Source: Octopus sinensis (taxonomy: Eukaryota). Taken from it: 64,000 nt of DNA. This document shows positions 1,853-26,800 of this stretch, piece after piece. Position 1 is the stretch's first letter. Every line of letters begins with the position of its first letter. The translations under genes were made by a program, and so were the position numbers. Under the pieces are notes generated by a model that was not told the DNA's origin, did not search any database, and saw only the letters and a program-made list of their open reading frames with translations. The DNA is taken from contig NC_043002.1 in NCBI RefSeq assembly GCF_006345805.1, positions 54,684,001 to 54,748,000 of the forward strand, in the 5' to 3' direction.

Positions 1853-2330
1853 ACTAGCACTATGACCCGGTGTTGTCTGGTCTAGTGCTAGTCAAGCATA
1901 TTTGGTCTTCCATGAAAATCCACTCTCTTGTCATTCACTTGGTCTAACTCGTTAATTATTCCCTCCATTTCTCAAATCAAAAAAGTGTGCACGTTTGAAA
2001 GCCAAAGAGGAGTGATACATAACAAAGGGAGGGAAATGCAGAGTTTTAAAGAGTTACTTCCCTTGCTATGGTTTAATATCTTTAGATTAAACTGCTGGAG
2101 TTACATCCCTTGTATTAAAGACTTTTGTTACCTGAAACATAAGGGTTCAGTTTATCGATTTTCTTTTATGGTTTTCAGGGGTAACTGGGGAAATGAAAAG
2201 ATCTTCACAACCACCCTTAGACAGTTTTGAATGACCATAGAAAGTGCAAGCCCTCTAACTGAAAAATTGTGGATTTGTATAAAGGATACACACACACAGA
2301 CATTTTGCCGTTTTATATATATATAGAGAT
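1853..2330 (+). mobile_element. Non-autonomous Helitron/Helentron-like element
   Basis: Starts actagcactatgacccgg...ggtctagtgctagt hairpin; ends ttttatatatatatagagat. Confidence 0.5.
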
Positions 2331-3479: not shown

Positions 3480-4665
3480 CCTGCAAATTCAGGTAAACAA
3501 GATGGTGAAATTGTTCGTCACACTCTTGTTTTGCAGGTTATTTATTGACAGTTTTGAAAGTTAAATTTACTTTCAATAAATCAATGCAGCTGTGAAACTT
3601 CACAACAAATGCAACGGAAACCAATCGTTGGCCGAGGAATTTGATTTTAACTCACCTCAAGGAAGATACACTTTAAATTGTCAAAAAACTTGAAACAGAA
3701 TCAGTAGCCAAAAATGGCTACAAATGAAACGATGTCTGAATGTCAACAGAGACTGTGACGAGCTCCACCAAAAGTCAACTTATCATTTATCTCCACTGAT
3801 TGGAGTGCTCCAAACGTTATGCATATCCTTCAGCAGAAAAAAATGGAAGCCTTATATTTCATGCCCTTCATGATGGGGATGACGACCACTGTCTTCAATT
3901 TTGCAAGAGATCTCAGCTTACCTTGACAGAGACACAATGCTGGACAGAATCTGGTGGCCAGACGAGGCCCGTTTTAAGCTCAATAGCACAATTAACAGAC
4001 ACAGTTGTGCCTACTAGGTGAGGAGAATCCAAGAGTGATGCTTGATAGGGATGTGGACTTACCTGGTGTGACAGTTTGCGCAACTACATCTTTGTTAGAA
4101 ATTGGTCTCTTATACTTTGAGGGAGCTACCTGGATATACTACAAACCTTCTTTTGGCCCAGGGCACTATTATATAAGATAGCACCCCTCCTCATTATGGA
4201 TGACATATTTGTCAGTGACTTGATAAAACTTTCCTGGACAGTGGTCCTGCACACTACCCCAGACCTCACATTGGCAGATTTCTTTCTTTGGGGGACCTTT
4301 GTTGACTTTGTTTATTGCGAAAAGCTTTGTACTATCCAGGAATTGAAAGTTAAAATTACTGAAAAGTTTGAGGAAATTAAGTGAACTCTGCAAGTGTGTG
4401 TGTGTGTGTCACTCTGTGCTTGTTAGATTGCAATTGTGCATTGATCATGAAGGAAGACACTTTGAAAATGGCAAGTATAAGCCTGAATAAATTAATTAAT
4501 TTGAAAACACGTTTTTTATTTATTTCTCCCTTCTTGCACACTCTAATAACATAAATTGCAAACAAACAAACTGATAGCCAGAAAACAAGAATTACGAGTC
4601 AATAGTAGTCACACATATTAACCCTAAAACAGGAATTGGCCACTAGTTTTTACTCACCCTCTATG
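3480..4665 (+). mobile_element. Degenerate Tc1/mariner-superfamily DNA transposon
   Basis: Broken transposase motifs IWWPDEARFKLNSTINRH, QDSTPPHY and TPDLTLADFFLWG; TIR-like end ...tttactcaccctcta; left boundary approximate. Confidence 0.8.
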
Positions 4666-5954
4666 TGTGTGTGTGTGTATATATATAGAGAGATATATAA
4701 TCATCACTAGTGTTGGTGTCATGAATAAAATCATCCAATACACTCTGTAAAGTGGCTGAGCCATAGAAACCATGTAAAAACAGACATCAGAGCACAATGC
4801 AGTCCATGGGTTTTTTAATCTTTTAGTGTTTAATCTGGCTCAAAGATTCTGTTTTATGCTCAAACTAGTCAGATCTGGCCTCTCACACCTACATTATAAT
4901 GTCATTCTAGAAAGAAACCATCTCAAAGCTACAAGGTAATTCATGATTAATACAAAACAATGTGTAAAAAATAAACATTACATTTGACAGAGAAAGATGA
5001 ATGGTAAAGGGTTAAACCATCCAACTGATGCCAACATGAAACATAGACCTATGATGATGATGATGTCTGTAGACTATTGTTTGGAAAAAAAAAAGACATT
5101 GTTTATGACGATTTTTGTTTTTTAATTACAGGTCAAACTGGTAAAGTGTTTGCAGCACAAGTGGGTGAATTCATGAAAGCAGAAACTAAAGTTGGTAAGA
5201 AACTCTTGGAATTGTTGTCATTCAATGTCTGTATTTCATGTCTGCTTTGCACTGGACAGGTATATTTCCATTCTCATCTTGATTGTTTCATCCACAATGT
5301 GCAGACATTACATCTTCACAGACCACACACCAACAGAAGATTGTAACCCCTTCGCACATATACATAGCCATTTGTATACTCATTAAACAATGCTAAATAT
5401 AACGTTTGTGTCCAGAAAATTTGCTTTAAACTTTTTTTACAATAGGAAAATTTGTCACCCTAAAAGAGGCACAAAAGCAGACTGTAAACTAGAAAACTTA
5501 TTTTAAAGAAATTACCATTCTCTAATTGATAGGTTGAGGAAGTTGTCATTTTAAGAAAACTTATCTTTTTTTTTTAATGGCAAATTTTCCTACAGCAAAA
5601 ATGTTTACAGTGAGATTTCATCTAACGATATCTCTGTACCAAGCCTCTTCAGTTTGTATCCACAGTTGTTCAATTTACTCAAATATATTTCAGGTTGTGG
5701 AGCTGTGGTTAACCCCCACCACCACCACCCTTTTTTTTAAACCCATGGACTGCTTTGATTTCTATTTTATTTGGATGGATCTTCGTAGCCATTTGATGAT
5801 TAAAAAAATATCCTATTATATTTTTAGAATTAAATATTAAATTCAACTTAGGATGAAAGTCAAAGTTTGCTTTAGAAGAGTTGAGATGTATAGAACGATA
5901 CAGATAAGGAAAGAATTTTATTCTCAAACGCAGGATAATGCTAATACAATAGCA

Positions 5955-6102
5955 TGAAGAGGATAAACTATCCATATATTGCAGAAAGATTTGTTACTAG
6001 TCAGCCATGAGACTCGAACTCACATCCCAGGGATGTGAGTTTGAGTCTCATGGCTGACCAGTAACAAATTTTTTCTGCAATATATGGATAACTTATCTTT
6101 CA
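5955..6102. repeat. Near-perfect palindrome with arms of about 73 bp
   Basis: Symmetric about 6029 (cacatccc-a-gggatgtg). Confidence 0.9.
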
Positions 6103-6103
6103 A

Positions 6104-6480
6104 TCATCATCATTAACATCTGCTTTCCATGCTGGCATGGGTTGGACAGTTTCACTGTGGTTTGGCAAGCGAGAAGGCTGCACCAGTCTCCAATCTGATC
6201 TGGCAGTTTCTACAGCTGGATGCCCTTCCTAACGCCAACCATTCTGAGAATGTAGTGGGTGCTTTTACGTGCCACTGGCATGAGGGCCAGTCAGGCGGTA
6301 CAGGCATCAGCCATGCTGAAATGGTGCTTTTTACCTGCCACCTGCACAGGAGCCAGTCTGGCAACGACCATGCTTGAATGTTGCTTTTTACATGTCACTG
6401 GCATGGGTGCCAATCAGGCGGTACTGTCATCGACCACAACAGCGATTTCACTTGCCTCAACAGGTCTTTGCAAGCATAGT
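6104..6480 (-). mobile_element. (GAT)n-tailed SINE-like repeat family, representative copy
   Basis: Core GTGGTTGGCRTTAGGAAGGGCATCCAGCTGTAGAAA...CCCATGCCAGCATGGAAA plus (GAT)n. Other copies near 950-1260, 6585-6783, 16120-16440, 18615-18787, 24010-24275, 24590-24915, 28640-28935, 36680-36830, 37735-38005, 39945-40115, 49545-49868 and 51300-52045. Confidence 0.85.
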
Positions 6481-7199
6481 TTGTCAGCAATTGCTGATTT
6501 CCTTATTGCACACATCAGTCAGCGCTCTCTGGACACATTCCTTTACAGGTAATGAACTGCATATTAATGAGAAAATAGTTGTGGCTGTTACTGGTGTCAT
6601 CTAAGTGGTACGTAAAAGGCACCCATTACACTCTTGGAGTGGTTGACATTAGGAAGGGCATCCAGCCATAGAAAACCCATGCCAAATCAGACTGGAATTT
6701 GATGCAGCTCTCCAGCTTAGCAGTCCCGGTCAAACTGTCCACCCCATGCCAGCATGGAAAGCTGGATGCTAAATGATGATGAAGAATTGTATTTAAAAAA
6801 AAATTATTAAAAATATTTAGCGTGTTGTAGAAATATAACCAAATTATTGCACACAAATTTTAACAACAATAATCTTATGTGGACCCTATCAAAGTCTGCT
6901 GTTGCAGGCATGGTTACTTGGGATTTCCTTTAGCATCTGAAGTTGGCAGATATAAATCCCTGAAGTGTATTTGTTTTCATCCTGAAATTGGTAGAAGCAC
7001 CAAGTGTTCTATTTCCAATACATTCTAAAAAAGCAGATGAGATAAACATAAAATATAATTTATTTTTAAGCACCACTTGCTGAAATGCCAGTTAATTCAG
7101 GTGTGAGGCCATGGTGCCATTGCTTGCACTCTCTGTCTGGGGTAACTTGTCAAGCAGAATCCCAGTCTGTCCCCATCTCTGCAAGATAACCTCCTCATA

Positions 7200-7362
7200 G
7201 GCGCAGGAGTGGCTGTGTGGTAAGTAGCTTGCTAACCAACCACATGGTTCCGGGTTCAGTCCCACTGCATGGCATCTTGGGCAAGTGTCTTCTGCTATAG
7301 CCCCGGGCCGACCAATGCTTTGTGAGTGGATTTGGTAGACGGAAACTGAAAGAAGCCTGTCG

Positions 7363-7403
<41 letters not shown>

Positions 7404-7530
7404 ATATATGTTTGTGTGTCTGTGTTTTTCCCCCCACCATCGCTTGACAACTGATGCTGGTGTGTTTACGTCCCCGTCACTTAGTGGTTCGGCAAAAAGA
7501 GACCGATAGAATAAGTACTGGGCTGTAAAA
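7200..7530 (+). mobile_element. tRNA-derived SINE with CORE-like segment, near full length
   Basis: GGCGCAGGAGTGGCTGTGTGGTAAG head, B-box GGTTCAGTCCC, TTGGGCAAGTG core. Other copies near 12760-13100, 17860-17970, 35345-35480, 37325-37620, 41452-41810, 42115-42357, 43420-43770 and 50730-50885. Confidence 0.88.
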
Positions 7531-8660
7531 ATACATCTCAAATCTTGGCACAAGGCCAGCAATTTAGGGTCAGGGGTCAGGAGAGTAGCATGCTGGACTA
7601 ACCCCCTTCGTTTCCAAGCAGCCAAGTTACATTATTACATTAGTGACTAATGTTACGGAGTTTAATTTACTGTAATCACAATTTTTAACGCTCTCCTCCC
7701 CACTCCATCACTTTTCTTTTTAAAAAATAACAGCAACACAGAAGCAGTACAAACACCAAAAGGTAACATTTATCCTCACTTAAAAAGGAGAGGGGAATGT
7801 GTTGGGATACAGAATACTGCAACAGGTGACCATGAGAGAGAGAGGGAATCTCTTACCTTGGCCTTTGGTGCATAGAAACACTCATGTTCATATTGCTGCC
7901 ACTGCTGGAACTAGCAGGTCACATGATTTCAGCCTTCCTTGGCCTTGTCAATGGTAGACACCTAAAGCTAGAGATAGCAGTGATAGACATGGAATCTCAG
8001 TGTCTATTCAGGCACTGGCATTGCAAATAGCCAATGGACTTATTGATAGTTAATAGCAACAGGAGGAGGATTAATGCCAAAAGGTAATCGTTACGGCCCT
8101 CTTTTAAAAGTGGAGATAGTGCGTTAGAACACTTCTTGTTTCTATTAGGTTGGTGCATAATTGATGATTGTTTTATAATTTACAACAGTTTTATATCCTG
8201 CACCAACCCAATGTAACACAGCTAGGACTACGTTCCATTAACTATTTCTTCCCTGGAAGGTCTGAAGATACTACATCCCCAAACATCAAAGACAGACATC
8301 TCAGAACATGTATTGCAGATAACCACCAGACTGATCTGCCATCAAGCCACAGTTAATCTCCAGCTGCCATTGGGGCCCCACAGATGCGCTGTGGATTTTC
8401 TACAGCTACTATGATTGCCTCTGCTCTTCCTATCACGCAAGTCATATCTCCCTCCTTTCCTGCAAGTGCTAAAGGTTCCACAGGAACTTTAATGCCATCA
8501 GTCTCACATATGCAGGGTAGGGACTTGCATGCATTCCCATCACTTATAGCAGAAACCAATTCCAATAACTTAAATACAAAGTGTTGGCTGCCCTGCAATC
8601 AGTTGACCATCAATTTTGAACCCAATCATTTTCATTTCAAACCGATGTTATTGTAATCAA

Positions 8661-9042
8661 TACTAGCAGTATCGCCCGGCGTTGCTCGGGTTTGTAAGGG
8701 AAATAACTATATAAGCATTTTTAGAGAGTTATAGCCAAAAAATGCATTAAAAATGGGAAAAAAATGATAGTAAATTTTTTTTAAAAACATTGACTCATCA
8801 GACATTTTTAGAGAGTTACTTCCCTTATATAATAGCGAAAAAATGCATTAAAATCGAAAAAAAATGATGGTAAATTTTTTTTAAAATTGTAGACTCATGC
8901 TAATACCCAGAAGGGCTTGATATGAATCACGACTATAAGATACCTGGTTTTGGTTAAACTGCACCACAAAATGTGGGAGTAGTTAGGAATCTAAATCGTA
9001 GGAGACAGACAGACACACAACCTCTCTTTTATATATAAAGAT
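8661..9042 (+). mobile_element. Non-autonomous Helitron/Helentron-like element
   Basis: tactagcagtatcgcccggcgttgctcggg start, internal tandem duplication, ttttatatataaagat end. Confidence 0.55.
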
Positions 9043-9230
9043 TATCTGATGCCATTTGTGGATTTGTTTCCCGTAGTTAATGAGCTGATCCGTTCGAGCA
9101 GACTAAAAGTGGTGGTTTACAGTGGACAACTGGACCTTATTGTGGCAACCTTAGGTGAGTAGAACAACTGGTTTCCTTATTTATCCTGTTTACACTGAAT
9201 ATATTGTAATGTTTAGCATAATCAGATCAC

Positions 9231-9520
9231 ATCATCATCATTGTTCGACCATGGTCGAGACAATGGAATTTACCATGCTATGCCAGACTTCACGCTCCAT
9301 CATGGCATTATGGAGGTCCTGTTGCTGGATGCCTGTATCCCTGGAGATTACATCAGGGTAGGAGAGTGTGCGCCCTCTGGTATTGCGAGTAGATGGCTTC
9401 CAGAGGAGAAGAGTAGAAATTACCTCTTTTTCAGCTCTACAACAATGTCCAGCAAACTGGACTCTCCTACCTTTCACAAGAGATGACACAGGTGGTAGTT
9501 TCCCATATATTTGCATTTTG
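9231..9520 (-). mobile_element. 3' fragment of an RTE-like LINE
   Basis: ORF 9238..9540 RRVQFAGHCCR...LLLWKP...SYPDVISRDTG, followed by a (GAT)n tail. Confidence 0.75.
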
Positions 9521-12500
9521 GTTGGATGGTGAGGGGGCAAAAAAAAAAAAAAGTTTTTAATTCTTTATTTCAAAATATATTTTGTCGTCATTACACAATT
9601 AAAAAAAAAAAAAGCAGATGCCACAGAAATTTGCTTTTGTTAACTTTGGGGGGAAAAAAAAAAGTTGTCTGTAACCTTTACTCTTCCATACTGGCATCAT
9701 TATTTGGATGCTTTGACAGAGCCAGATGATTGTACTGAATGCCAATGTCTGCTATGGAATGGTTTCTGTGGCTGTATGCCCTTTGTAATACCAACCACTT
9801 CATAGAGTGCATTGGATGCTCTTTGTGGTACCAGCAGTTGCAAGGTCACCAAGACAAGACCCCTTGATTGAAGGGGAAGTGATTTTGTCTGGTGATGAGC
9901 AGTTAAAATTTGGTAGAGCAACAGGAATGAGAGGCATCATGATGATGATTGGAAAAGGGAAGAGGGCAGGTAAATTTGCAAAAATATTGCCAGGAATTTT
10001 GAAGACCAAACTAAGATAGCATGTTGAGGGATGCAGGATTAAGAAAAAACTCCAAAATCATTTCTATTAATTTCTGGTGTGAAATTAAAAATTGCCCCCC
10101 CCCCCTACAAAAAGAGCACCCAGAATACACTGTAAGGGCATCTATGGAGCACAATGTAAGCCCTGTGGATCACCAGATCCTGTCAAACTGTTCAACTCAT
10201 GCCAGCACAAAAAAGAAAAAAAAAGGGACCATTAAATAATGATTTTCATCTGATCTTGATGAAATTCGTTTTATATATCTCATTGAGCTCTGATACAGCA
10301 CCAGGTGTGTATTTACTATTTCTGGGGAAAAGTTTTAGTAAACTTGTACAATTTACATATGGAGAGGGAAAAAAACCCTTTCCATGTTGTGGCATCTTAG
10401 GCAAGTGTTTTTATATAGAAGCCAAAAGTTTGAATGAATTTGAGAGATGGAAACTGAAAGAAACTCACTGTTTATGTAGTGTGTGTTTGTTTTTCCTTAC
10501 CTTGACAATGCACAATAGTTGTAAATAAGAGTCACTGTCACACAAGTGGTGTCATTTTCAATTGACAGCTGTCATGTCTACCCAGCAACATTACTATAGA
10601 AAACTTTATATTAATGCTCAATATCACAGTAAACTGAACTAAAGCAGGTATATTGAGCTGCTGTTAGATGAATGAGTGAAATCCATTAATATTAAACCAA
10701 TATTTGTGCTGTTGTGCCAAAGTTTAATTGAAATTTTTCGAACAGGTACTGAAAAATGGGTGGATGATATGGACATTGCCATGGTCTTTAAAAACACCAA
10801 AAGAAGAATTCTTGTTGATCCAATCACATAAACTGTTATGGTATATAAAAGAAGCCTAAAAAATTTCTCATTCTACTGAATATTAAATGCAGGTCACATG
10901 GTAAATATTCACTTTTGTTTTTCATTGTATTTCGAGGTTTAAACATCACAATAAATTGATTACACACAAAATACAAATACAGCAAAATAGACTTTTACTG
11001 GTTTATTTACTTTTGTTTTCATACAAATGAATGCAGTGTACTTGTAGTAGTAGTAGTACACTTGAAAGGCAGGGAACAATCCAGATGGGCAACCATTTTG
11101 TAATTCATCTAAAGTATAGAGATCAACATTTGTTTTGTTTCAGCCAAATAATATGGTTGTCAGTGGGGTCCATTGATTAAAGCAAAGCCATTTTAATTAG
11201 CAGCAGCTCTTGCACAGTTAAAAACCAATTCCATTTTTCTCTTGTAGATTCCATCAGATAATCCAACTGGTGCATTGCAAATTAATTTTAGCTTGAGCTT
11301 AACAGAAATGTCAAGCCTAACAAGCCATCAAGACGGTCACTTCCAGGACCTGAGTATTTCGGAAGCATCTCAAACCTACTTTATTCTCCAGTGAAAATTG
11401 CCACAAATAAATGCGTCAAAGATTTTTTTTTTCTTCTTTGCTTTAATTATGAAAAATAGAATTCTGTTGCTTTTAATTGCAAAGCAGACCATCAGTGAGG
11501 ACATTAAAATCATTATAGATTCAAAAACACTAGAAATATTCTTAAATTACAAAAAACCCCAAATAACTTTCCTCAACTATTAGAATCCATAGCACTAAGT
11601 TCCTCAGTCTGGAGACAATAATAATACACTCCCAAAATAGATCTTTAGAAATTTTTAGGTACAAATTAACTTATTTTGAAATGAAAACAAATTCTTCCCA
11701 AATTTACGCACCAAATAAATGAACAGATAAACCAAATATTTAACATTCTCTCATTTGGCACTTCAGGCCACCAAATTTATAGCAGAGATGTTTGCTGATA
11801 TAGGAAAGAGATTTCATCCAATTAAACTCTTGATAATGGCAGTAAATAGGATAACGAGTGGCAAATGTTCCAAGAGAAGAAAATCAAAATTGTAATAAAT
11901 ATATATTGTCTAATGGAAAGGCACCAAATAAAACTTTTCAACCCATGGCCTGATGTACCTTTAAATATTATAATGCTGGAATGCTATAATGTTATGAGGA
12001 TTTCAATAAAAGTGAAAGCCCTTAAAGCAAAGCATCTACAGTTGAAGCAGACCCAGTTTGGTTGGTTGAAAAGATTTCTATGTAAGTACTGAACATACAC
12101 AGTGTGTGTTCCATAGACAATCTGTTAACAGTGGATGCAGGAGTGACAAACTTTAGAACTGATGAGTATTATGATTTCCTTTAAAACTTGGTAAGTTTCT
12201 GAATGTCAAAATGAAAAAATAATTTACAAGATTCCAAGAAAACAAAAAACTTATATATAAACACGCACACACACAAGAGAGAGCTAATAATAAGTGAGAG
12301 TAGAGAGATTGTGACAGGTTTAGTAATCCTATCACTTAATGTCTGTTGTCCATGCTGGCATGGGTTGGCTGGTAAGCTGAGGGGCTGCACCAGACACCAG
12401 CTGGATGCCCTTCTTAATGCCAACCACTTAGTGTAAAGTGAGCTTTTATGTGCCATGGCTATGATTTCACTTGGCTTGATGCATCTTCTCAAGCACAGTA

Positions 12501-13773
12501 TATCGACAAAGATCTTAGTCATTTGTCATTGCCTCCGTGAAGCCCAATGCTCAAAAGGTGCTTTTTATGTGCCAGTTACACAACACTGGCCACATTGCCT
12601 CTGTGAGGCTTCCAAGGTTCTGCCTTGTCTGGCAGTCATTAAAAGAGATAATTAGAGAGAGCAAAAAAAAAGTAAGAAAAGATAAGAGTTTGGTGTGTAA
12701 ACCCCAAAGTTTGAAAATATAAAATGATGCAACAATATGTAAAGAGTGAACAATTTGTCTTCTATTTCAATCATTTGGCTGTGGCCCTGCTAGGGCACTG
12801 CTTTCAATTTTTAGTTGAATGATTCAACCCCAGTATTTTTGTTTTTTTGAAAGCCTGGTTCTTATTCTATTGGTTTCTTGCCAAACTGCAAAGTTATGAG
12901 GGATGTAAACATACCAATGCTGGTTGTGAAGTGGTCTTGGGGGACAAAAAACATACACAAACACACGCCAACCTTATTGCAGTTTCTATCTACCAAATCC
13001 ACTCACAAGGTTCAGTAGTAGAAGACGCTTGACCCAAGGTACCACATAAGTTGGACTAAATCTGATACCATGTGGTTTCAAAACAAAGCCACACTTGCGT
13101 CCCCCCCTACACACGAAGTAGCCAGTCCAGCAAATCCTTCCCCTTTCTCCAATTCATCATTAACAAATCCTAAACAAGAATTAATGTGTGTGTGTATCCT
13201 CACACACAAATAAAAGATATTTCCATCACAAACGACAAGTGTGAAAACCAACTAATAATCTCCATAAGACATGGAACCATTTGGTCAGACCAAGACTTTT
13301 TACTGTCCACTTCTGCCCCGTTTCCAATTGACTAAACCATTTAGAAGAACCTACTAAAAGAGCTACTTTTATCCAACAAAAAAAAACAAAAAAAAAACGC
13401 AAAACCTCTACAAATTAAACAATAATGACCAGTTTTTATTTTCTTCATCGATGGAACCAGGAGGTGTCCAATTTAATGTTTTCTCTACTTCAAGATTCTT
13501 TTGGATATTTCAGCAATCACTATTTGAAGAGAATCCAAAATTTCAAAGAGAACTAATCAACCAGATGCACAGAACAGAAAACTTTAGATGTGATTGAAAC
13601 ATCATTAAAAGTTTAGTTATTTAAAAAAATGTTTCCATACCAAAACACAAAACGAAATACACTATGGTTATTTCTACGAAAAGCAACAATGAATGTCATT
13701 GGTGAGGGGAGGGGGGTTTAACGTTTCACTTAGGTTACAAAGAAGAAGAAAAAACAGGGAAAAGCAGACTTAC

Positions 13774-13851
13774 CTGTATGTTTAAACATTTTAATAAACC
13801 GATATATTTGGTCTGGGTTACCATGACAATGGGTCAAACAAGAAAAACCAA
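13774..13851 (-). other. Candidate non-coding exon, 78 nt
   Basis: ttttcaatctcag acceptor; CAG|gtaagt donor. Confidence 0.5.
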
Positions 13852-14284
13852 CTGAGATTGAAAATTACAATACCTTTACTATGATATTCCAAAGACTGAC
13901 CATTTGTGATATTTGTTGCTGTTGTTGTAGTTGTTGTTCCAATTATTTAAAAAGAGTTTTTAAAAATGGTACTCACCCCCAACCATTTTCAAAGACTTTG
14001 GACTCTGTAGCAAAACATGATTATCATAAAGTTAGAAAGCATCCCATTAACTGGTCATCTTAAATACTTTCAGAATTAAAAGAGATTAAATCAGAATCTT
14101 ATATCTAAAATACCATTTGGAAAATTTTTTTTTTTTTTTTTTTTTTTTTAACAATTAATATTTACTGAAATTATAAATTTTTAAAATTCTGAAACAACTT
14201 GTCTAAATAATTATTTTAAAAATTATTTTCCAAGAGTAAAAGAAAATGGTTTGAGAGGAAGAGAAGGACAAAGAAAGTAGAGGG

Positions 14285-14356
14285 AGTCACCAACAGTCCA
14301 ACAGTGTGGAAAGTTGGGGGCAGGTTAAACCAGCCCAACAACATTTTGTTGTGACC
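14285..14356 (-). ncRNA. Four-way-junction RNA motif, copy A (function unknown)
   Basis: Minus strand ggtc|acaaca-aaa-tgttgt|t|gggc-tggtttaacct-gccc|ccaac-...-gttgg|t|gact; same architecture as the copies at 20221 and 20494. Confidence 0.7.
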
Positions 14357-14368
14357 TAACCTACTTGC

Positions 14369-14509
14369 CTGCTAAATATGATAGACTGTCCATCATTGAA
14401 GCACCAGGCCACTCTCTCCCAAAACCTAATCTGGAAGATAGGAACTACGGATAAGTAGCTGGAAACTCCAGATGTCAGCTTCTTGATTTCTTTTCAACCA
14501 ATTCACTCA
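14369..14509 (-). other. Candidate non-coding exon ending in a GC donor, 141 nt
   Basis: gctaa branch-like site, long pyrimidine tract and tttaaag acceptor; CAG|gcaagt donor. Confidence 0.55.
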
Positions 14510-17500
14510 CTTTAAACAAAGGGGAGTGGAAAATACAAAAGAAAAGAAAAAAAGAAAAAAAGCTTAGCATTTAGCTTTGCATTAGATAAATTTAAAACCT
14601 TAATTTTCACACTAGATGAAAAACAAAAATAATGAAAATTTGTAGTTAACTAAAAAGACATTGACAAGAACAAATGTAACACTAAAATTATGCAATCTGT
14701 ATCCAAATCCTCTAAATAACCTTCAAGACAATTCTCTTTTATAACTGTTGTTCAAAATAGGATTTCTAGCACAACATTTGAAATCACATTGAAATTCCTC
14801 TCAAACTATGAAGCTGTTTGTTGCATGCAAATAAAAATTGAAAATATATTTTATGCAAGCCTTTACTTATCCACTTTAATGTATCGCATTAACTAAATCA
14901 TCTACAATATGTCCAGCCATTACATCGGTAGCGATTCGACAGGTTCCAAAGTTTCATTGAGAGAAACTGATTTGGACTTAAAACAAAAGAAAATAACCTT
15001 TTCGACAACACCTCAAGTTTTGTGGGAGAGGTTAAATTGATTATGTCAACCCCAATGCTTAAACTGGTACTTATTTTATTGACCCCAATGGAACGAAACA
15101 CAAAGTCAACCTTGGTGAAATTTGAACTCAAAATCTGAAGACAGATGAAAAGTGTGTTAACAATTCAACCAAATCACCACCTTAAAAGATAACAACATCA
15201 AAGAAACAAGAAGAGCAACTATTAACCATTTTGGAAAAACTTCAGATAAAAGCAGAAAATCAACATCTGGAATTTTAGTTTTTGAAATGATTTCTAAGAC
15301 TGACAGAAGTCCAAAGAGAGGCAAGATATGAACCTTTTCAATCAAGGGAACAAAGATATTTTGCCTAATCAGCTCAGATATCACTGTTCATATGGAATTA
15401 TTATTATTATTATTATCAGGTCACTGCCTAGAATCGAACTCAGAATCTTGGGGTTAGTAGCCTATGCTCTTAACCACTACACCATGTACCCATGGGCAAT
15501 TATGAAGTGAATTTTAGGACTTATAAATCTAATATTTTCCTATCCTTCCTTAATACTGGTTCCCATATGCTATTCCTATCTACACTCTGTCTGCTTAGGA
15601 GGTTGTGTCCTAGCATATGTGCTGTTTCTTTTTAGTTTTTGTATTTTCCAGTGGTGTTCTCTGTCTATAATAATAATAATAATAATAATAATTCATATGG
15701 AATAGTTTAGGAAAAATAAATGTTAAAAAAAAATCCAAGAAAATTTGAAATCCCTTTTCTTGAGCAGCTTGATATAAATTTAGTTGAAACCTTACTGTTT
15801 GATGTCAAGAAATAGGGTCAGGTCATTCAATTATCTTCTGGTTTAAAAACAAAACAAACAGGATATGAAGAGAGAAGAGTTAGGCTGATCTTTGGAGATG
15901 CAGCTGTATGCAACTGGTTGATATAAAGATAGCATTTTGAATGGTTTGCAGAAGGAAAAGTAAAACAATGGAAACAAGACAGAAAATCTATTACGGGAAT
16001 CAATTGAAATCCAAACAAAAAAACTGGACAAGTGATGTAGTAATTTAATTTTGTATGTGTATACTAAAGTTGGAAAAATTAATGTAATTATGATATTCTG
16101 TTGGTCTAAAATGTACAGGTTCCCGTGCCAGTTGCATGTAAAAAGCAGTATCCAAACATGGCTGATGCCACTGCCCCCCTGATTTGCTCCCATGCTGGTG
16201 GCATGTAAAAAGCACTATGCAAACGTAATCGATGCCAGGCCCGCCTGACTGGCTCCTGTGCCGGCAACATGTAAAATGCACCCACTACACTTCTGGAGTG
16301 GTTGGCATTAGGAAGGCATCCAGCTACAGAAACACTGCCAGATTTAGATTGGAACCTGGTGCAGCCTCCTGGCTTGCCAGTCCTCAGTCAAACTGTCTAA
16401 CCCATGTCAGCATGGAAAACGGACATTAAACGATGATGAAGAATACTATGCAACTTTATAGCATACACACACACTTGTGCAGATGTGAAATAATTTGACA
16501 CTAAAATTATTTTTTCCTGATGTCGACTGCAAAATGGCTGTCATCCGCTGGATATTCAAATGTGAAATAAATATATTCATTTCATATCTCCAGACTTTCT
16601 TTACGTTCTGTATTAATCTCCACTGATCAGATTTATTGGATTTCAACTGGATAGGGGGCTCCACATTACACTCCTACATATTGGCTTGCTATGTGGCATG
16701 TAAGCCAGTCCATTAAAGGAGCTTTTATTTTTGAGATTACCACTGGATTAGAGAATTCCATATATTGTGCATTAAATACACACACAATGAGCTTCTTTCA
16801 GTTATCCACTCGGTTATAGTTGGCTAGAGGAAGACACCTGCCCAAGGTGCCAAACAGTGGGACTGAACCTGAGACCATTTGGTTGGAAAGCAAATTTCTT
16901 ATCAGACAGTCACACCTGTAGATATGACACGCAGAAGTATGCATTTCTTTTGTAATAAGCCAAAAGAGGTGGTGGGGGTTAGTGAGGTTGTTTTTTAGCT
17001 TGAAGGAAGGATTGGGCAGTAGAATGTTGAGTAAAAGAGGTGAGAGAAGGTATATATAGGTTGGACATGGGTGGTGGTGGTGGTGATCTATTTTAGAAGC
17101 TGTTGTAGTTAACATGCAATGAATCAGCAACTTGTTGGTGAGTCAACATTTTGCAATCGAATGAATGGCCTTCAGGGATATTGATTGCTGAGTTATGTAA
17201 TCACTCTTCTAGATGTAAGATTAATTAGGGTGGCTCTACTTGATGTTTGTAGAGAATTAGCAAGAGTCACAATTCAGCTATTATCTGACCCTAAAAAGGA
17301 AACTTATGAAGCTTTGGTAATAGTGTCAATAAGAGGTCATCGAGAGAGAGAGAGAAAGGGGGGGATTGGTCTGAAACGGTCTATTAACCCTTTAAGCATT
17401 CAGATTATTGTCAAATCTAATTCTTATTTATTCACATTGTTTTGAATTCATCATGGATTATCTCATAGCTTTTGAGATTTCAATGATATGATTGTTTATT

Positions 17501-18030
17501 TTTACAATGACATTATAGGGTAGGTATGAGAAGCTTGATCTGGTCAGTTTAAACATAAAACAGGGAGAATATTGGGGCCGGATGTGGGTTAAGAGACTTC
17601 GAGGGTTTCTGTGTCATTCAGGTGTACACAGGGAATGGCACAAGATAAAATTATGTCAATTTTTAAAGAAAATACTAGTATAGGTAAGACGACTAGATTG
17701 AGGTTGTGTTCTTGTGGCTAACCCTTGTTTTTCAAGTAAAGGATCTTTTCACAGGTGTTTGGAGGTGTGAAGGGAGCTGATGAATTATTGATAGAAATGA
17801 AAACACCACTACTTAGCAAAGAACTCTTTTATGGTGCAAATATAAGCCAGCTTCTCTCAGTTTTCATCGACCAAAATCCAGTGACAAGGCCAAAGGCTAT
17901 GGAAGATACTTGTCTGAAGTGCCACAGAGTGGGAGTGAACCTGAAACCACATGGTTGGGAAGCAAGACCTTTGAAGGCAGCTTACAAATCCTCTGCAGAG
18001 AATTAGTGCCAGTCTGGCAGGAGATGGCTG

Positions 18031-18031
<1 letters not shown>

Positions 18032-18091
<60 letters not shown>
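18032..18091. repeat. (GT)n microsatellite
   Basis: About 30 perfect GT units. Confidence 0.97.
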
Positions 18092-18093
<2 letters not shown>

Positions 18094-20220
18094 GTGTGTG
18101 GAGCTTTGTGAAGGAGTGAAAGGAGTTGGTTGAATACAAGGGTACATTTGAGTTGGTGGAGGAGGGTGAGGAGAAAGAGAGACCATGTCAGTGCTACAAC
18201 TGACACAACATATCTGATTGGGTGGGGAGGGGAAAGAATAAAAATGGGGATGGATATCAAAAAAAACAAGGATTTACACTTGAAGTGAGATTTAGCCTTC
18301 AGTGATTGGACTAATAATCCTTTCTACTAAGGGCACAAGGCATGAAATTTTGGGGGATGGCATGTGGCTTAGTGGTTAGGGCATTCAACTCACAATTGTA
18401 TGATCAAGAGTTCAATTCCCATCGAAGTGTTGTGTCTTTGAGCAAGATATTTTATTTCACGTTACCTCAGTCCACTCAGCTGGCAAAAAGGAGTCATACC
18501 TGTATTTCAAAAGGGGTCAGCCGTGTCACACATTGTGTCATGCTGAATCTCCCTCTGAACTACATTAAGGGTACATGTGTATGGAGTGCTCAGCCACATG
18601 CATGTTCCTTCAATTTGTAAAAAGCACCTACTACACTCTCGGAGTGGTTGGTGTAAGGAAGGGCATCCAGCTGTAGAAACCTTGCCAGATCAGATTGGAG
18701 CCTAGGGTGGCCTCCTGGCTTGTCAGTCCCCAGTCAAACCATCCAACCCATGCCAGCATGGAAAACAGATGTTAAACGATGATGATGAGGTTAGTTAATT
18801 ACACTGACCCAACTGGTTCTTATTTTACTAACCCTGAAGGCGTGAAAGGCAAAGTCGGCCTCGGTGAAATTTGAACTCAGAACATAAAAGCAGACAAAAT
18901 GCCACAAAGCATTTCGCCTGGTGTGCTAATGATTCTGCTAGCTTGCCACCCTAGTGATTCAACTGTAGGCTGTCACTGACATCTAAAGACTAGATGCAAA
19001 GTTGCAGCCTTTGCTCCATTGGGGATGTCTGCGTGTCCAGCTATGAAGGAAAAGAAAATCGAGTTCTTATTTGAGACTCAGTGCACACTCAAGTATTTTA
19101 CAAATAATAGACATCAATCAACCTGACTGAGCAATACTCAAACATCAAGGTCAAACTTTGACCAATCTGCTTCTAGTTCTACCTAATTCCTTCTTTTAGA
19201 ACCTTCCCAATGGGCCAATATGGATTATTGTGATTTCAGCTGAAAATATTTTCCTTCAGCCAATTTTTAAATCTGAAGACTGAACATTCAAGTTTTCTAT
19301 TTAGTTGCAAAAACAAGCAGTTTGTGTTGAGTCACCAGGCCTGGGTTGGGCCCAAGATCAAGTCACTGTCAGCAGTCAAGCTCCCTGCCCCTCCTAGCTC
19401 TCAGTCCTTACTGAAATGATGGAATTCAGGGACAATATTGTTAGACTGAATATTTCATTGGGTTCCAGTGTTGAGTAAAATAATCTTGTGGTTAAGCTTG
19501 GCCATCACTGTATCCAAAGAACTATTAAAATTCAACTCAACTGCTTAACGATTCAGAAACCAGTCATAGATGTAGAAACGCGAAAAAGAACACGCGCGCA
19601 CACACACACTATTAACACCAATGAAGATTACACAAGTTTCAAACTACATTGATCTGAGTAAATGCAAGAGTAACTTCACCATATCACTAACAGAAATGGC
19701 TTTGTCATGACAAAAACAAACAAATAACTATTTCAATGTTTTTTTCCTTCTTAACAGGACAGAAAAATCTTGAAGTTTTTAAATATAAACATCAAAACAT
19801 CAGTTATTTGTTGTTGCAATGTAAAGCTATTTATCAATGAAATCTTAAAATTCAGGTTTAAATGAATGGAGACTCACACTAGGCTTAGACTAAATCTCAT
19901 TCCACACACACACACTTGCGAATACTCGATTCACTCACTAATCTTATATATACATACATGGAGGTATGTAAAAGCCTTATAAGAACTCAAATGGTGAAGA
20001 AAGCAAACTAGTTTTAAAAATAGAAAGTGAAAATCAGATTCAAAACCAAAATCAAATTAAATCTGTTACTGACGAGAAAAAAAGAAAAGGAATCCATTAA
20101 TATTGTTCAAGGAATAGAAAGGAATGTAACAGATGAATGAGGTTTACGTAAATGCGAAATGTTGCAAAAGATGAAAGGAAAATGAACAAGTCAAAACACA
20201 AAAAACAAACAAACAAACGA

Positions 20221-20292
20221 AGTCACCAACTGACCTCGAGAAAGGCAGTTAGGGGCAGATAAAACCCAACAACAAGTCTACTTGCTGTGACC
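20221..20292 (-). ncRNA. Four-way-junction RNA motif, copy B
   Basis: Minus strand ggtc|acagcaag-taga-cttgttgt|t|gggt-tttatct-gccc|ctaactg-cctttctcgaggt-cagttgg|t|gact. Confidence 0.7.
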
Positions 20293-20493
20293 GAGTAACA
20301 AAAAAAGGAAAAAGAAAAAAAAGGAAAAAAGGTTTCCTAGGTAATTAAAGTGCAACTTAAGATATAACAGGCCATCTTTTATATAGTGATTAAAATAATT
20401 TACCAATAAGCATGCAGAATTTACAGGAACAGGAGAAAAAAATATGTGTATATATATATATATTTATAGAACTCAAGTTTAGAAAGAAAAATG

Positions 20494-20581
20494 CACATCG
20501 CCAACATGTTGTTGGGGGCCATTGTAGCTAGCCCAACAGTAAGCCGCAGAACCATACACAGAGCAGTCTTACTGTGACGTG
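20494..20581 (-). ncRNA. Four-way-junction RNA motif, copy C
   Basis: Minus strand cacgtc|acagtaag-...-cttactgt|t|gggcta-gctacaa-tggccc|ccaac-aacat-gttgg|c|gatgtg. Confidence 0.7.
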
Positions 20582-20594
20582 GTGACTGACTTGC

Positions 20595-20678
20595 CTGTAG
20601 AATTTCTTTGGAGTCCAAAGCCAGGTCACAAGCAAGCTCTCTCTCTCTCTCTCCCACCCAATGTACCCAAACTCAAAA
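20595..20678 (-). other. Candidate non-coding exon ending in a GC donor, 84 nt
   Basis: ttttctgcctgttcatggtttcag acceptor; CAG|gcaagt donor. Confidence 0.5.
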
Positions 20679-21297
20679 CTGAAACCATGAACAGGCAGAA
20701 AATATTTTTTTTTTTATTTCAGCCTTTTATAAAGAGAAGAAGAAGAAAAAAAAAATCAAGTTTCAGATAAATTTGAAAATGTTAAATCTGCAAATCAAGC
20801 ATATATAACATTAGGAAAGACTTCAAAAGACTGGAATATTACATATAAATGTGTTAGTTTTAGAATTTTTCTTCATTTTGAAAGAGAATGACTGAATACA
20901 TTTTCAACCTAATGGGTAGTAGCATGTGGGTATATCATATGATTGATCAGGCTATCGGACATTCCCATACACCACTAGTCACAATGTGTTTCAAAAAATG
21001 CCACTGTTGACTAGCAGAGGTCAACATTCCCCCACAATTGGGTGGGGGGGTTTCATCCATTCCAGGGCGACTCATTTCTACAGCTGAGTGGACAGAGCAA
21101 TGTGAAATGAAGGGTTTTGTGCAGGAGCACAACCGGCTACCTGGACAACAGATTGAACCCACAATCACCAGATCGTGAATGCAATGTCTCTAATGACAAG
21201 GCCATATGACTTCACATGTGTAAATATAAATGCATTAATTTAATAACTACAATTAATTTAATAGTTAATGAGTTCCTGTATCTCAATCTGTGCCACC

Positions 21298-21365: not shown

Positions 21366-22368
21366 GTTTGATGTCAGTGCCCTAGCTTGACCACCCCCAC
21401 TTTGCTCAAGACTAATAAGAGAGCAAACTTGTGTAAATGAGAGATATTCTATAATTACTTTTGCTTTTTATGTTCAGTTATAATAAAAACAATTTTATCA
21501 TTCTTATACAAGAATATCATTGACAGTGACTTCCATCTTTCAGCCAATTAGTGTATGTATATACACACACACACTAACTTGAAACAGCTGTTGATCTTAA
21601 GGTGTAAGTTCATCACTTCCTCCCATCATCTGTACAACCCCTGATGTTCCTTGAACAATCCTTTCCACCAACCACTTATCTTTGTCAAGTTACATGCCTG
21701 CTGTCATATAAATACTGCTGTTTTGACAGCTTCTGTTTTTTGGATTCTGCTAACTGCAGACTTTTAAATTGCTTCATCTTTGTGCCACATTTTTAGATTA
21801 TTCTACACTAATTTCTTTATCAAATCTTTCTTCCCCACCACCTTCATTTCTGCCCATGACTTCTCTTTCATCAGTTACTCTTGAGAAATCCAAAACCAAC
21901 ACTAATTCTATGAATATTAGTTCTCTCTCCGAACTGAAAGTCTTGGAAGTCATAAAAAATATTTGAAAGCTACCAGCCTTTCTATTCAGACAAATTAACA
22001 GTTGCGAGATATATGCATTTATACATAAAATTAACAAGTTTTCTTTCAAAATTACAAAATGGTAGAAAAAGGTGATACATCTAGAAAATTCTAGAAAGGA
22101 TTCCTTCTACCATTCTTTATTTGGAAATGAGATAAAACAAGAAATTGTTTAAAAAAAAAAAATATTTAAAAACAAACAAACATGGAAATTGAAAGGTAGA
22201 AATCATAACAGTACACATATTGAAAACTTGTTCCTTAGAGTGATTTATTAGAAATGAAAAATACCCCAAGTATACACAATGAGCTATACATTAAATAGGT
22301 AGGGGGGGCTCAGGGGACAGCAGGGCAGGGGGAGGGGTTGAGAATATGTTCATAAATCACACACTTAC

Positions 22369-22391
22369 CAGATTCCAGCAGTGTTCAATGT
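22369..22391 (-). other. Candidate downstream microexon of ZNF207, 23 nt
   Basis: tttatttcatcag acceptor and CTG|gtaagt donor. Confidence 0.5.
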
Positions 22392-23108
22392 CTGATGAAA
22401 TAAACATTCCTCCCACTCCCATCCCCACCCTATTTAGGATCACGTTTCAACCTTACCCCCCATCGCCCACCCTACCCCCAACCAAATGAACTAATGGTGT
22501 CAGGAATAAAAATGTTCAGGGTTTAATGTTATAGACGTCTATTTCTTCGAACACCATTTACACAACATTCATTTTATCCAATAAATAGAATGGATTTTGT
22601 ATGCCATATCTTTGACAGTTGTGTTGCCATGGGTAGCAAATGCAGGTCTGAATTGCTTGAGATTATTATAATTATTATTATTATTATTATTATTATTACA
22701 CACATTTGACACAAGAGTTTTATTTCAGAGTTTCTTGAACATAATCAGAAGGTTAGCCACAAGTTCCTGAGGTCAGAAAACATTTTGTGAATGGAAAAAA
22801 AAAATTGCTAATCAAGTTTTCTAATCAATAAAATTAAACAGTTTGAAATCTTTGAATTGTATTACTTCTCCAGTAAAATAAGGAATTATTAACGTGATTC
22901 CGCTAATCCAAAGAAAACAACATTCTCCTCACTGCTAGGAGAAATCAGAAAGATGGAATAAGGTAGAACTTTGCAGATGAGTAACTCAATAATTTAAGAG
23001 CGGAGAGCAGCTATGGTTGTACTAGTGATGGAGATAGGAAAAAAAAGTGGCTGTAGACAAAGAAAAGGACATGAGGGAAGTCTGAAGAGACTAAACAATG
23101 ACGCTTAC

Positions 23109-23167
23109 CTTGAATTCAAGTGTTGGATGGTAAGTAGCTGGGCTAAAGTCTTCTTCTATCCCCTCAC
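23109..23167 (-). other. Candidate downstream exon of ZNF207 (3'UTR or alternative coding), 59 nt
   Basis: tttatgcag acceptor and AAG|gtaagc donor. Confidence 0.5.
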
Positions 23168-23709: not shown

Positions 23710-23849
23710 TTAGAACCTCCCTGCTTGTTGCGGTGATTGTGTTGTCGTTGCTGGTTGATTCATTATGACACCACGTGGATATGGGTTGTAAGGAGCACGG
23801 ATGCCCATCGCTGGTGGCACAGTGGCTGGCATTCGAGTGAGAATTGGGC
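23710..23849 (-). CDS. ZNF207: ZNF207 last coding exon
   Basis: [27 protein letters not shown]...QQAGRF then TAA; resembles the GGRY/F C-terminus of the family. Confidence 0.88.
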
Positions 23850-26800
23850 CTGAAATTGTCAAAAGGTTTTACAATAAGTGACAAAGAAAGAAAAAAGAAA
23901 AAAACTAAAATTAAAATGCTAAAGGAAATCATTTTACACAAAGTCAGAATTAAAGTAAATGCAATGTTAGTTTTCTATTTCTGGGATCCATTTGCCATTT
24001 AAAATGCATCCAGTTCACATTGTAAAGTGGTTGGCATTTGGAAGGGCATCCAGCTGTAAAAAAGCCTTGCCAAAACTGATCTCACATGTGCTTGTGTCCT
24101 GTAAAAACCACTAAGTCCACTCTGCTGAGTGGTTGATGTTAGGAAGGTCATCCAGCTGTAAAAACCCTGCCAATACAGTCACAAAAGTCTAGTGCAAGCT
24201 TCTGCCTGATTGGCTCCTGTCAAACCATCCCACCCATGCCAGCATGGAAGGCAGGTGCTGAACTATGATGATGGTGATTTGTAACATTCTTTAACCTTTT
24301 AGCATTTAAACTGACCGTACCCAGACCAAATATTCTACCTATTTTATGTTCAAACTGGCCAGATCCAGCCTCTCACACCTACCCAACAATGTCATTCTAA
24401 AAACAATCACATTGTCAAAATCTCAAGGCTATGAGATGATGCAAAATTAATTCGAAACAATGTGAATAAATAAGGATTACATTTGACAGAGTAATCAGAA
24501 TGCTGAAGGGTCAGTCACTTGCAAACAGTAAAATACTGAACACATCAAATATAACTTACTCCACTTCTACAATACAGCCACCATTTGTAGTGCTCCCGAC
24601 TGGCTCCCATGCTGGTGGCACATAAAAAGCACCATCTGAACATGGCTGATGCCAGTACCCACTGACTAGCCCCATGCTGGTGGCATGTAAAAAGCACTAT
24701 CTGAATGTGATTGATGCCAGGCATGCCTGACTGGCTCCTGTACTGGTGGCATGTAAGAAGCACCCACTACACTCTTGGAGTGGTTTGCATTAGAAGAGCA
24801 TCCAGCAGTAGAAACCTTGCCAGATCAGACTGGAGCCTGGTGCAGCCGCTGGCTCCCCAAACCTCAAACTGTCCAACCCATGCCAGCATGGAAAACAGAT
24901 GTTAAATGATGACAATGAAACTACCAAGCAAGCTACTCGTGCCGGCTATTATTCCACTCAAAGCTGAAACTTTTTGTAATACCAGTGAACCTGAAAAATT
25001 TAGATATTTTTTTTGATTTGTAACACATTATAGCAATACATGTGGCCTAATGGTTAGGGTGTTGCACTCAGGATTGCCAGACCATGGGTTCAATTTCCAG
25101 ATTGGGTGGTGCATTGCGTACTTAAGCAAAATACTTTACGTTGCTTTGGGCCACTCAGCTATAAATGGGTCACTCTGTGACGGACTAGCCTTCTGATTAG
25201 GGGGAACGGATGTTGGCCTGTTCCTGTAGCCAACAGGGTTAGGGTTCTTTCAAAGCTAAAAACGATGCAAAGCACATTGTGATCAATGATGTATAACAGG
25301 TTTAAAATTACAACACCTTTTACAGAACTCAAAGAAGACAGAAGAAATGGTATGTTCAATCACAAGTGAACTTCCACTGAGATCTGTCACCAAAAACAGT
25401 CCAGCCATGACTATTTCATCTATCCAGGAGTATTTAAGACAACATTATCTCAAGTATACATTCCTTTATTTCAAGTTGTAGTAGTTCAGAGAGATGTGGC
25501 TATCTTTTCTAGCAAAAGAAAAGCAACCATGTAAAAGCTTATTATTTACATTATTTAAATTATTTACATTTGATGGATATTTGTCCTCATCTTGTTTGTT
25601 ATATTTTTAGCTAAAAGTAAGCTGTTGTAACTTGCATATACTGACCAGGAGAAAGGTTTTGATAGTTCCATGATTTATTATGTGATGAATGTTAAGGAAA
25701 CCCAGACAAATTTCTTGTACAAACTATATACACAGGTATCGGCAGCAAGGTCAGTGTTAGCTATGTGAACAGTGACAAGTTTAGAGTGTAGGTGGGGGTC
25801 TATTTGGGCCTGGTCCTCAGCCCTTTTTGTCCATTGTAGTCTTCCAAGATATAACAGGAGTTTAAGACTGTTAGTCCATGGCATGGGAACTATGATTTAG
25901 TTCTGAGAATTAAATCTAATGTAGATTTACAGAAGAAATTTCAGATACGTAAAGAAGACTAGAATAGAGAAACCTCAAACATAGCAAATAGTAAATTTTA
26001 TTAAATACGAAAAAAGACAGGGTTCTGGTGCCATCAGAAACTGGTACTGGGTTTGATATGCAAGAAAAGGAGGAGACAGAAATTCTGCATGGATGCATAG
26101 GAGGAATAAAGATTAATAACAGATGGGACATAAATAAATTAACCGTAGGTGCAAGTGTTCTAAGTGTTTGTGTAAGAATGTATTATCACCTCTGATAGCA
26201 ATAAAGAATTGCTCCCTCAGAATTAGGGGCAAATCATTTAATGTTTATGTATAATGCTGCATGGTAGCAACACATGGGCCTTGGATGCAGAGCATTTGCA
26301 AAGATTAGAAATGAAGTGAGCACACACTGATGGATGTCTAATGTTAGCGTGTGGATGATGGAGTACAAATGAGGGTAAAGAGAAACCAGATACAAAAGGA
26401 ATCAAATTTAGTGTGCAAGAACTGAACTGGTAGAGGCATGTGATGTGCAAGAAAGTAGTGAATGCTCCAAGTGGAGGGACCCTGTGAAAGATGGAGATTG
26501 AGGACAACAAGAAACAAAGCATTAAAGGCAGTTCACAAGAAGTTACACTTCACAAAGACAAAGGATTCTGAGGGTTAGCCTCTCACACCTTAACAGTAAG
26601 CATTACCCTTCTATATTATTAGCTACCATTTCAGGTCACTCATGGTCAACACACACACACATCAACCAATTTCTAGAACCACCACTTGCTTCTCTTACTA
26701 ACTTATAGCTGCCCTTAGCCATCTCTTCTCTCTCTTCCCCATTGCTTAACTGTTTCCTTCCTTACTTCACCTAGCATTGATTATTTCCTCCCGTCCTGTC

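Follow-up and report, generated by a model that had tools for sequence, protein, structure and literature searches.

Folding and covariance analysis of a 64,000 nt stretch of Octopus sinensis DNA (assembly GCF_006345805.1, contig NC_043002.1, positions 54,684,001 to 54,748,000; the window, in the coordinates used below) identified three copies of a four-way-junction RNA fold downstream of ZNF207, on the minus strand and in the sense of that gene. [quoted passage not shown] Judged from sequence comparison, the fold is genuine and selected, its conservation extends across phyla, and it goes with a 5' splice site of the GC type; it very probably acts through this adjacent donor. The fold likely binds the ZNF207 protein and would thereby help U1 to use the weak GC donor, leading to unproductive mRNA and negative feedback on ZNF207; to this reading, productive splicing included, we give a rough probability of 0.57.

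Fold A lies at 14284..14357 (core 14286-14355), fold B at 20220..20293 (core 20222-20291) and fold C, which has a long arm 1, at 20495..20580 (core 20497-20578), all on the minus strand. They were delimited by folding and by a covariance model, which scores them at 53, 50 and 55 bits, respectively. An original prediction made from the letters of this DNA had already placed three copies downstream of ZNF207, whose stop codon is at 23712-23710, with coordinates that differ by 1–3 nt from ours. Each copy folds as a closing helix and three hairpins, as had been predicted, and is recovered by the model. The folding z-scores of A, B and C are −2.4, −3.0 and −2.2 on the minus strand and −2.4, −1.2 and 0.0 on the plus strand, so that they settle the predicted minus strand for B and C and leave only A ambiguous. 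No match to a descriptor built from the three copies occurred in 100 dinucleotide shuffles of the window, and a model built only from copy A and its duplicate elsewhere in the genome recovered both B (E 1.4e-6) and C (E 1.4e-4). The linkers at the junction are 0, 1, 0 and 1 nt long, which corrects the earlier description of a single nucleotide at every junction. A candidate fourth copy near 19330-19375 had no match with the final covariance model. The folds were not matched in Rfam, either at the gathering score in the whole window or at E ≤ 10 in the region 13800-21000.

Searching metagenomes for exact matches to three of the four junction strands produced 63 loci, and the octopus-trained covariance model matched 49 of these, with 75 copies in all (1–6 per locus), each at E < 3e-4. 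The 14 model-negative loci were those without the fourth strand, and ZNF207 sequence was present in none of them. ZNF207 coding sequence was found upstream and on the same strand in 18 of the 49 loci, and on the opposite strand or downstream in none; upstream ZNF207 coding sequence or a terminal-exon-like peptide was found in 30. A further 13 loci fall in the same blastn cluster, and the remaining six hold at most 1.5 kb upstream. Besides octopus, six lineages are linked to ZNF207, one being a cluster of 37 loci, and six are unlinked. No named relative was found for the 37-locus cluster. Two other loci, L050 and L021, encode proteins ending as those of venerid bivalves do, and three (L051, L060 and L080) have a signature in common with the annelid Lamellibrachia. 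In L051 and L060 an intron-free ZNF207 frame continues into the folds, which places these in the untranslated region at the 3' end (3'UTR): three copies about 840–1150 nt past the stop in L051 and one copy 115 nt past the stop in L060. Locus L021 also has a degenerate copy without the middle arm (1948-2003, minus strand, 24.7 bits). Viral contigs gave one and two pattern matches, of which one was scored and is a chance match, and no ZNF207 was found there.

After removal of 15 near-identical cluster rows and the octopus duplicate, 40 non-redundant copies remained, with the consensus RUC-ACAG..CUGU-U-GGGC..GCCC-CCAAC..GUUGG-Y-GAY. The interiors of the arms vary from 1 to 76 nt in arm 1, from 4 to 13 nt in arm 2 and from 2 to 18 nt (median 5) in arm 3, and one further copy has an arm 1 interior of about 150 nt. 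Among 56 aligned copies, 96.7% of the cells pair and two-sided changes occur in 9 of the 19 pairs, which none of 500 shuffles equalled. Also the 5' strand, which was outside the search pattern, still pairs with both partners, GTC/GAC being replaced by ATC/GAT in six rows. Seven of the metagenome copies were picked up by the model without the pattern, and in some of these arm 3 has changed in a compensatory way. Compensatory change and conservation at the ZNF207 loci of other animals bear out the claim that the fold is under selection. Because the junction pairs are fixed in their letters while the loops are free, we infer that a protein reads the junction.

Folds A and C are each preceded by a GC-type 5' splice site, AG|GCAAGT, which the original prediction had missed: 13 nt before fold A (14363..14370, minus) and 16 nt before fold C (20589..20596, minus). 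Each site would end a predicted non-coding exon. Exon A, of 141 nt (14369..14509, minus), lies between a pyrimidine tract with an AG ending at 14510 and the GC donor at 14368; exon C, of 129 nt (20595..20723, minus), lies between a pyrimidine tract with an AG ending at 20724 and the GC donor at 20594. Both have a strong acceptor, with a score that (as given for exon C) is reached by 3% of random positions. The earlier statement that the flanks are not homologous therefore needs qualification, as A and C share the donor, 13 and 16 nt upstream, and the pyrimidine tract with AG, 141 and 129 nt before the donor. Fold B has no donor, and a pyrimidine tract lies ahead of it.

The same association was detected outside octopus. 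GGCAAG is present within 45 nt upstream in 27 of the 40 non-redundant copies, the expectation being 0.013 per search window, and the spacing from donor to fold is 7–24 nt. All 27 donors read AG|GCAAGT, which can pair with the 5' end of octopus U1 at seven of the eight positions, the exception being a C-A mismatch at +2. Downstream of the fold there is a U-rich tract (U 0.47 versus 0.31; TTTT in 24 of 40 copies versus 5 of 40 upstream). A structural switch by which the fold hides or frees the donor was rejected in silico, the unpaired probability of the 27 donors being 0.35 when free and 0.36 with the junction enforced.

Splicing signals are most complete in the 37-locus cluster, where 19 representatives keep a branch-point-like TCTAAY, a pyrimidine tract and AAATAG while the flanks diverge. 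The exon ending at the GC donor is 65–75 nt long, with lengths that do not keep the frame (10 rows measured), and in 12 of the 19 representatives another GC donor lies closer to the stop. A conserved non-coding exon with a weak GC donor is present in the cluster and predicted in octopus. The two bivalve-like loci share GT donors 200–300 nt past the stop, a micro-exon and donor-plus-fold units, and in both the final, long-arm fold stands behind a weak GT donor. GT in place of GC occurs in single cases, the upstream donor of L026 and L059, and arrays reach five donors in 500 nt (L064). For most of the other lineages, nothing scoring above background as an acceptor was found within 250 nt of the first donor, so that there a 3'UTR intron may have the donors as its alternative 5' ends.

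In octopus, the minus strand carries ZNF207 from 44592 to its stop, and one exon in the window is 100% identical to Octopus ZNF207. The last coding exon part (23710..23848, minus, stop TAA at 23712-23710) was assigned because its translation matches the C-terminus of P0010 and by the joint 23848/27315, which, like the joint 27405/29494, was seen in the RNA-like runs X6, X14 and X18 and not in X5. The main polyadenylation zone (22116..22724, minus), defined by hexamers and contig ends, has AATAAA at 22724, 22249 and 22121. Deep mRNA contigs (depth 186–200) stop near 22706 at an ATT repeat, a contig end not being a proven RNA end; a single contig of depth 52 spans 21468-22654, and past about 21500 the depth of the contigs, given without strand, drops to 6–18, equal to the intron level. 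These ends and depths place all three folds beyond the main polyadenylation zone, fold C 3.1 kb, fold B 3.4 kb and fold A 9.4 kb past the stop, and the octopus folds consequently sit in extended or nascent RNA. Possible upstream partners of the GC-donor exons are candidate 3'UTR GT donors found by consensus scan, one at 23103..23110 (minus, first intron base 23108) and others at 23167 and 22368.

The zinc-finger domain of ZNF207 binds U1 small nuclear RNA (snRNA) in an electrophoretic mobility shift assay and also binds U1-70K directly, K42E abolishing this, and ZNF207 drives splicing of LUC7L, LUC7L2, SNRNP70 and RBM3 linked to nonsense-mediated decay (NMD), according to the accessible part of PMC12952242. 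Since the zinc fingers bind U1 snRNA, ZNF207 autoregulation, proposed in the original prediction, is plausible. Spare ZNF207 would dock on the four-way junction and stabilise the U1 snRNP on the GC donor with its single C-A mismatch at +2. An intron downstream of the stop would then be removed, in octopus with the main poly(A) site bypassed, and the spliced ZNF207 product would be degraded or retained. The number of donor-plus-fold units would set the gain of the feedback. In table S8 of PMC12952242, the rows listed (30 of 161) are coding-region guides.

The fold itself was probably already predicted in vertebrates in 2006, and the autoregulatory logic is known from other systems. EvoFold (Pedersen et al. 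2006, PMC1440920) placed two clover-shaped folds at the end of human ZNF207 and, in the accessible text, proposed no function for them. They resemble the octopus folds in their position at the same gene end, on the sense strand, in several copies a few kb apart, and also in having near-identical central stems, compensatory changes, free loops and both a short and a long form; they are also linked to an alternative splice variant, and at the octopus folds non-coding exons are predicted from donors and acceptors, no joint there being among those listed. They differ in being a vertebrate prediction with two copies, and in the part of PMC1440920 available neither a ligand nor a GC donor is mentioned. 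Likened by description, the two are very probably the same family, so that the fold's earlier standing as undescribed holds against Rfam and probably not against this paper. A literature search found no ZNF207 self-regulation and no follow-up on the ZNF207 clover folds, GC-AG introns, autoregulation or NMD, most subscription papers and the EvoFam paper lying outside the search.

The poison exon of RBM39 combines a weak 5' splice site, a nearby stem-loop, a factor that contacts U1 snRNA and feedback by decay in a similar way, and differs in having a short linear motif, generic stem-loops and an exon in the coding region (PMC10477243, as far as accessible). In the ZNF207 unit the four-way junction is letter-fixed and the donor is a GC, and the units lie past the stop and in arrays. 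Other repeated 3'UTR structures that bind a protein related to snRNAs, and control terminal splicing or 3'-end processing, are the MAT2A hairpins bound by METTL16 and the polyadenylation inhibition element of U1A. These are single hairpins or internal loops with a clear sequence likeness to an snRNA, whereas no such likeness was found for the ZNF207 fold. Also the U11 snRNP-binding splicing enhancer (USSE) of U11-48K and U11/U12-65K, by the available text of PMC5473595, is alike in that conserved signals resembling splice sites, placed in the 3' region, switch the transcript to unproductive 3'UTR isoforms in a feedback; it consists of tandem U12-type donors read by the U11 snRNP and has no junction fold. 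Identity with the USSE was rejected, as all 27 donors here are of the U2-type GC form, each paired with a fold, and not tandem U12-type.

It is possible, though we put it below even odds, that the GC donor and letter-fixed junction form a portable device that serves the zinc fingers of ZNF207/BuGZ as their native ligand, bound with high affinity, is older than the mollusc/annelid/vertebrate split, senses free ZNF207 to control U1 loading on the weak donor, and has its gain set by copy number (1–6). If true, this would account both for the human clover folds left orphan since 2006 and for the way in which ZNF207 grips U1 snRNA. The fold offers a candidate ligand of 55–60 nt for ZNF207, with dozens of natural variants, and a candidate mechanism for a fold predicted in human without a function; it also shows a multi-helix junction linked to a GC donor, which is rarely seen.

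Several points weigh against ZNF207 feedback through the fold and its donor. The alignment of copies was fitted to the structure, includes kin, and derives from a pattern that fixed three of the four junction strands, so that the invariance is partly built in, and all four junction-closing pairs reach a probability of at least 0.5 in just 19 of 40 single-sequence ensembles. The 45 nt ahead of the 13 remaining non-redundant copies hold no GC donor. Among 11 first donors scored, only those of octopus have an acceptor clearly above random, and the acceptor of the 37-locus cluster rests on alignment. No joint at either octopus GC donor was found among the joints listed (15 of 2353) and coverage there is intron-like (6–18), an absence that is weak because the octopus RNA evidence consists of contigs dominated by contigs of short interspersed nuclear elements (SINEs) and made with no NMD block. 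The animal ZNF207 locus L086, chosen without regard to the motif, had no model match in 20.9 kb and no AGGCAAGT. To our knowledge, decay that depends on the junction complex is not established in these phyla; fly and worm NMD is independent of that complex. Finally, the available discussion of PMC12952242 calls ZNF207 RNA binding largely non-sequence-specific, and over-expression of ZNF207 alone altered splicing little (PMC12952242).

The L086 sequence (CBDBCZ010000008.1) is a divergent, intron-containing animal ZNF207 gene whose contig was deposited with a bacterial genome assembly, likely as host contamination.

The best surviving alternative, though unlikely, is that the GC sites are docking places for U1 that are seldom spliced, U1, kept in place by the protein on the fold, serving there to define an upstream acceptor, to block 3'-end cleavage or to retain the RNA in the nucleus. 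With up to five donors in 500 nt (L064), the arrays look additive, most first donors lack a strong upstream acceptor, and the L051 contig, spliced elsewhere, retains three units unspliced. The lack of a GC-donor joint among those listed for octopus agrees with this, and U11 and U1 sites in the U11/U12-65K mRNA provide a precedent in the accessible part of PMC5473595. Docking alone does not fit the full set of branch point, acceptor and exon conserved in one cluster, nor the substitution of GT for GC in the upstream donor of L026 and in L059, and the human paper, in its available text, puts one fold in the intron of a splice variant (PMC1440920).

Somewhat less likely still, the junction is read by some other protein, one that is associated with U1 or binds RNA structure, and that tunes ZNF207 by cross-regulation or, once bound, represses the donor. 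Binding of ZNF207 to the fold is inferred here, the junction letters do not copy U1, and bulk RNA binding of ZNF207 is reported as non-specific in the part of PMC12952242 available. Against a different ligand, the fold is found only at ZNF207, both in the octopus genome and in the linked metagenome loci. Such confinement to one locus is the typical pattern of self-regulation.

Copying of the U1 junction or of its stem-loop 3 (SL3), with recognition by that likeness, is improbable. Like the fold, U1 and U11 snRNA (RF00003 and RF00548) have a closing helix and three hairpins, and ZNF207 binds U1 snRNA (PMC12952242, accessible part). The best rotation pairs the helices P3, P4, P1 and P2 with SL1, SL2, SL3 and helix H, which is structurally sensible. 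ZFP207 reportedly binds SL3 of U1. However, when the junction letters were compared with octopus U1 or U11 in all four rotations, with and without offsets, the likeness stayed at chance level (p 0.14–0.36), U11 scoring about the same as U1, and the covariance models of the fold matched neither the U1 nor the U11 loci. The proposal of an snRNA mimic by sequence is therefore not supported. The resemblance of arm 3 of copy A to SL3, also part of the original prediction, is private to that copy among the 40; an SL3-like loop in every copy is ruled out by arm 3 interiors of 2–18 nt (median 5). The fold further lacks the U1-70K and U1A loops, the Sm site and the terminal stem, has other junction letters and is embedded in pre-mRNA. 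A mimic of U1 at the level of shape would be compatible with the ZNF207 feedback preferred here.

A small RNA released from the intron and acting in trans, with its 5' end at the GC donor followed by the junction and a U-rich tail, is very improbable: the order of these parts recalls an snRNA layout, but arm 1 ranges from 1 to about 150 nt and the spacer from 7 to 24 nt, no fixed Sm-type site or 3' stem was found in the flanks listed, and there are many diverged tandem copies.

Two patterns each gave four exact matches in the 2.7 Gb octopus genome, namely A, B, C and one other, which is part of a block, duplicated over at least 10.8 kb at 87–95% identity, on the same chromosome. With four matches, the fourth inside the duplicated block, the fold is not an interspersed repeat, in agreement with the earlier claim that it is not a transposon. 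A covariance-model search had been suggested with that claim; its outcome is the 49 of 63 metagenome loci, and the two exact patterns did not find hundreds of dispersed genome copies. A neutral repeat or transposon remnant, which the fourth copy elsewhere on the chromosome might suggest, is refuted by this count, by the two-sided changes and by the same position at linked ZNF207 loci in other phyla. The duplicate holds fold A with the donor altered to AG|GCAGGT, and no ZNF207 coding sequence was found within 10 kb on each side of it. The block lies at about 3932000-3943600 of G000:C6 (L001, L082), corresponds to 3839-14662 of the window and contains SINE insertions. One RNA-like run has a contig carrying the letters of the duplicate.

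At the ZNF207 locus itself, intron 1 is of the U12 type, with the donor GTATCCTT at 44552-44545 and the branch site TTCCTTAA at 36225-36206 (minus), and a U12-type intron 1 is likewise present in L086. In the accessible part of PMC2831892 a U12-type ZNF207 intron is listed for fly and human. The proteins P0018, P0020, P0022 and P0025, which cluster with a Sepia protein, have an isoform with a shortened C-terminus, in which part of the last coding region is skipped.

The end of a convergent gene lies at 10744-12365 of the window (plus strand), spliced at 10899/11247 (GT-AG) and covered at a depth of 159–366. If a short frame ending at 10831 is the last coding exon of this gene, it has an abundant intron about 70 nt past its stop, which would question junction-triggered decay in octopus. 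A weak tRNA match of 30 bits at 18363-18424 (plus), with a 75% identical copy at 25039, is probably the head of a tRNA-derived SINE.

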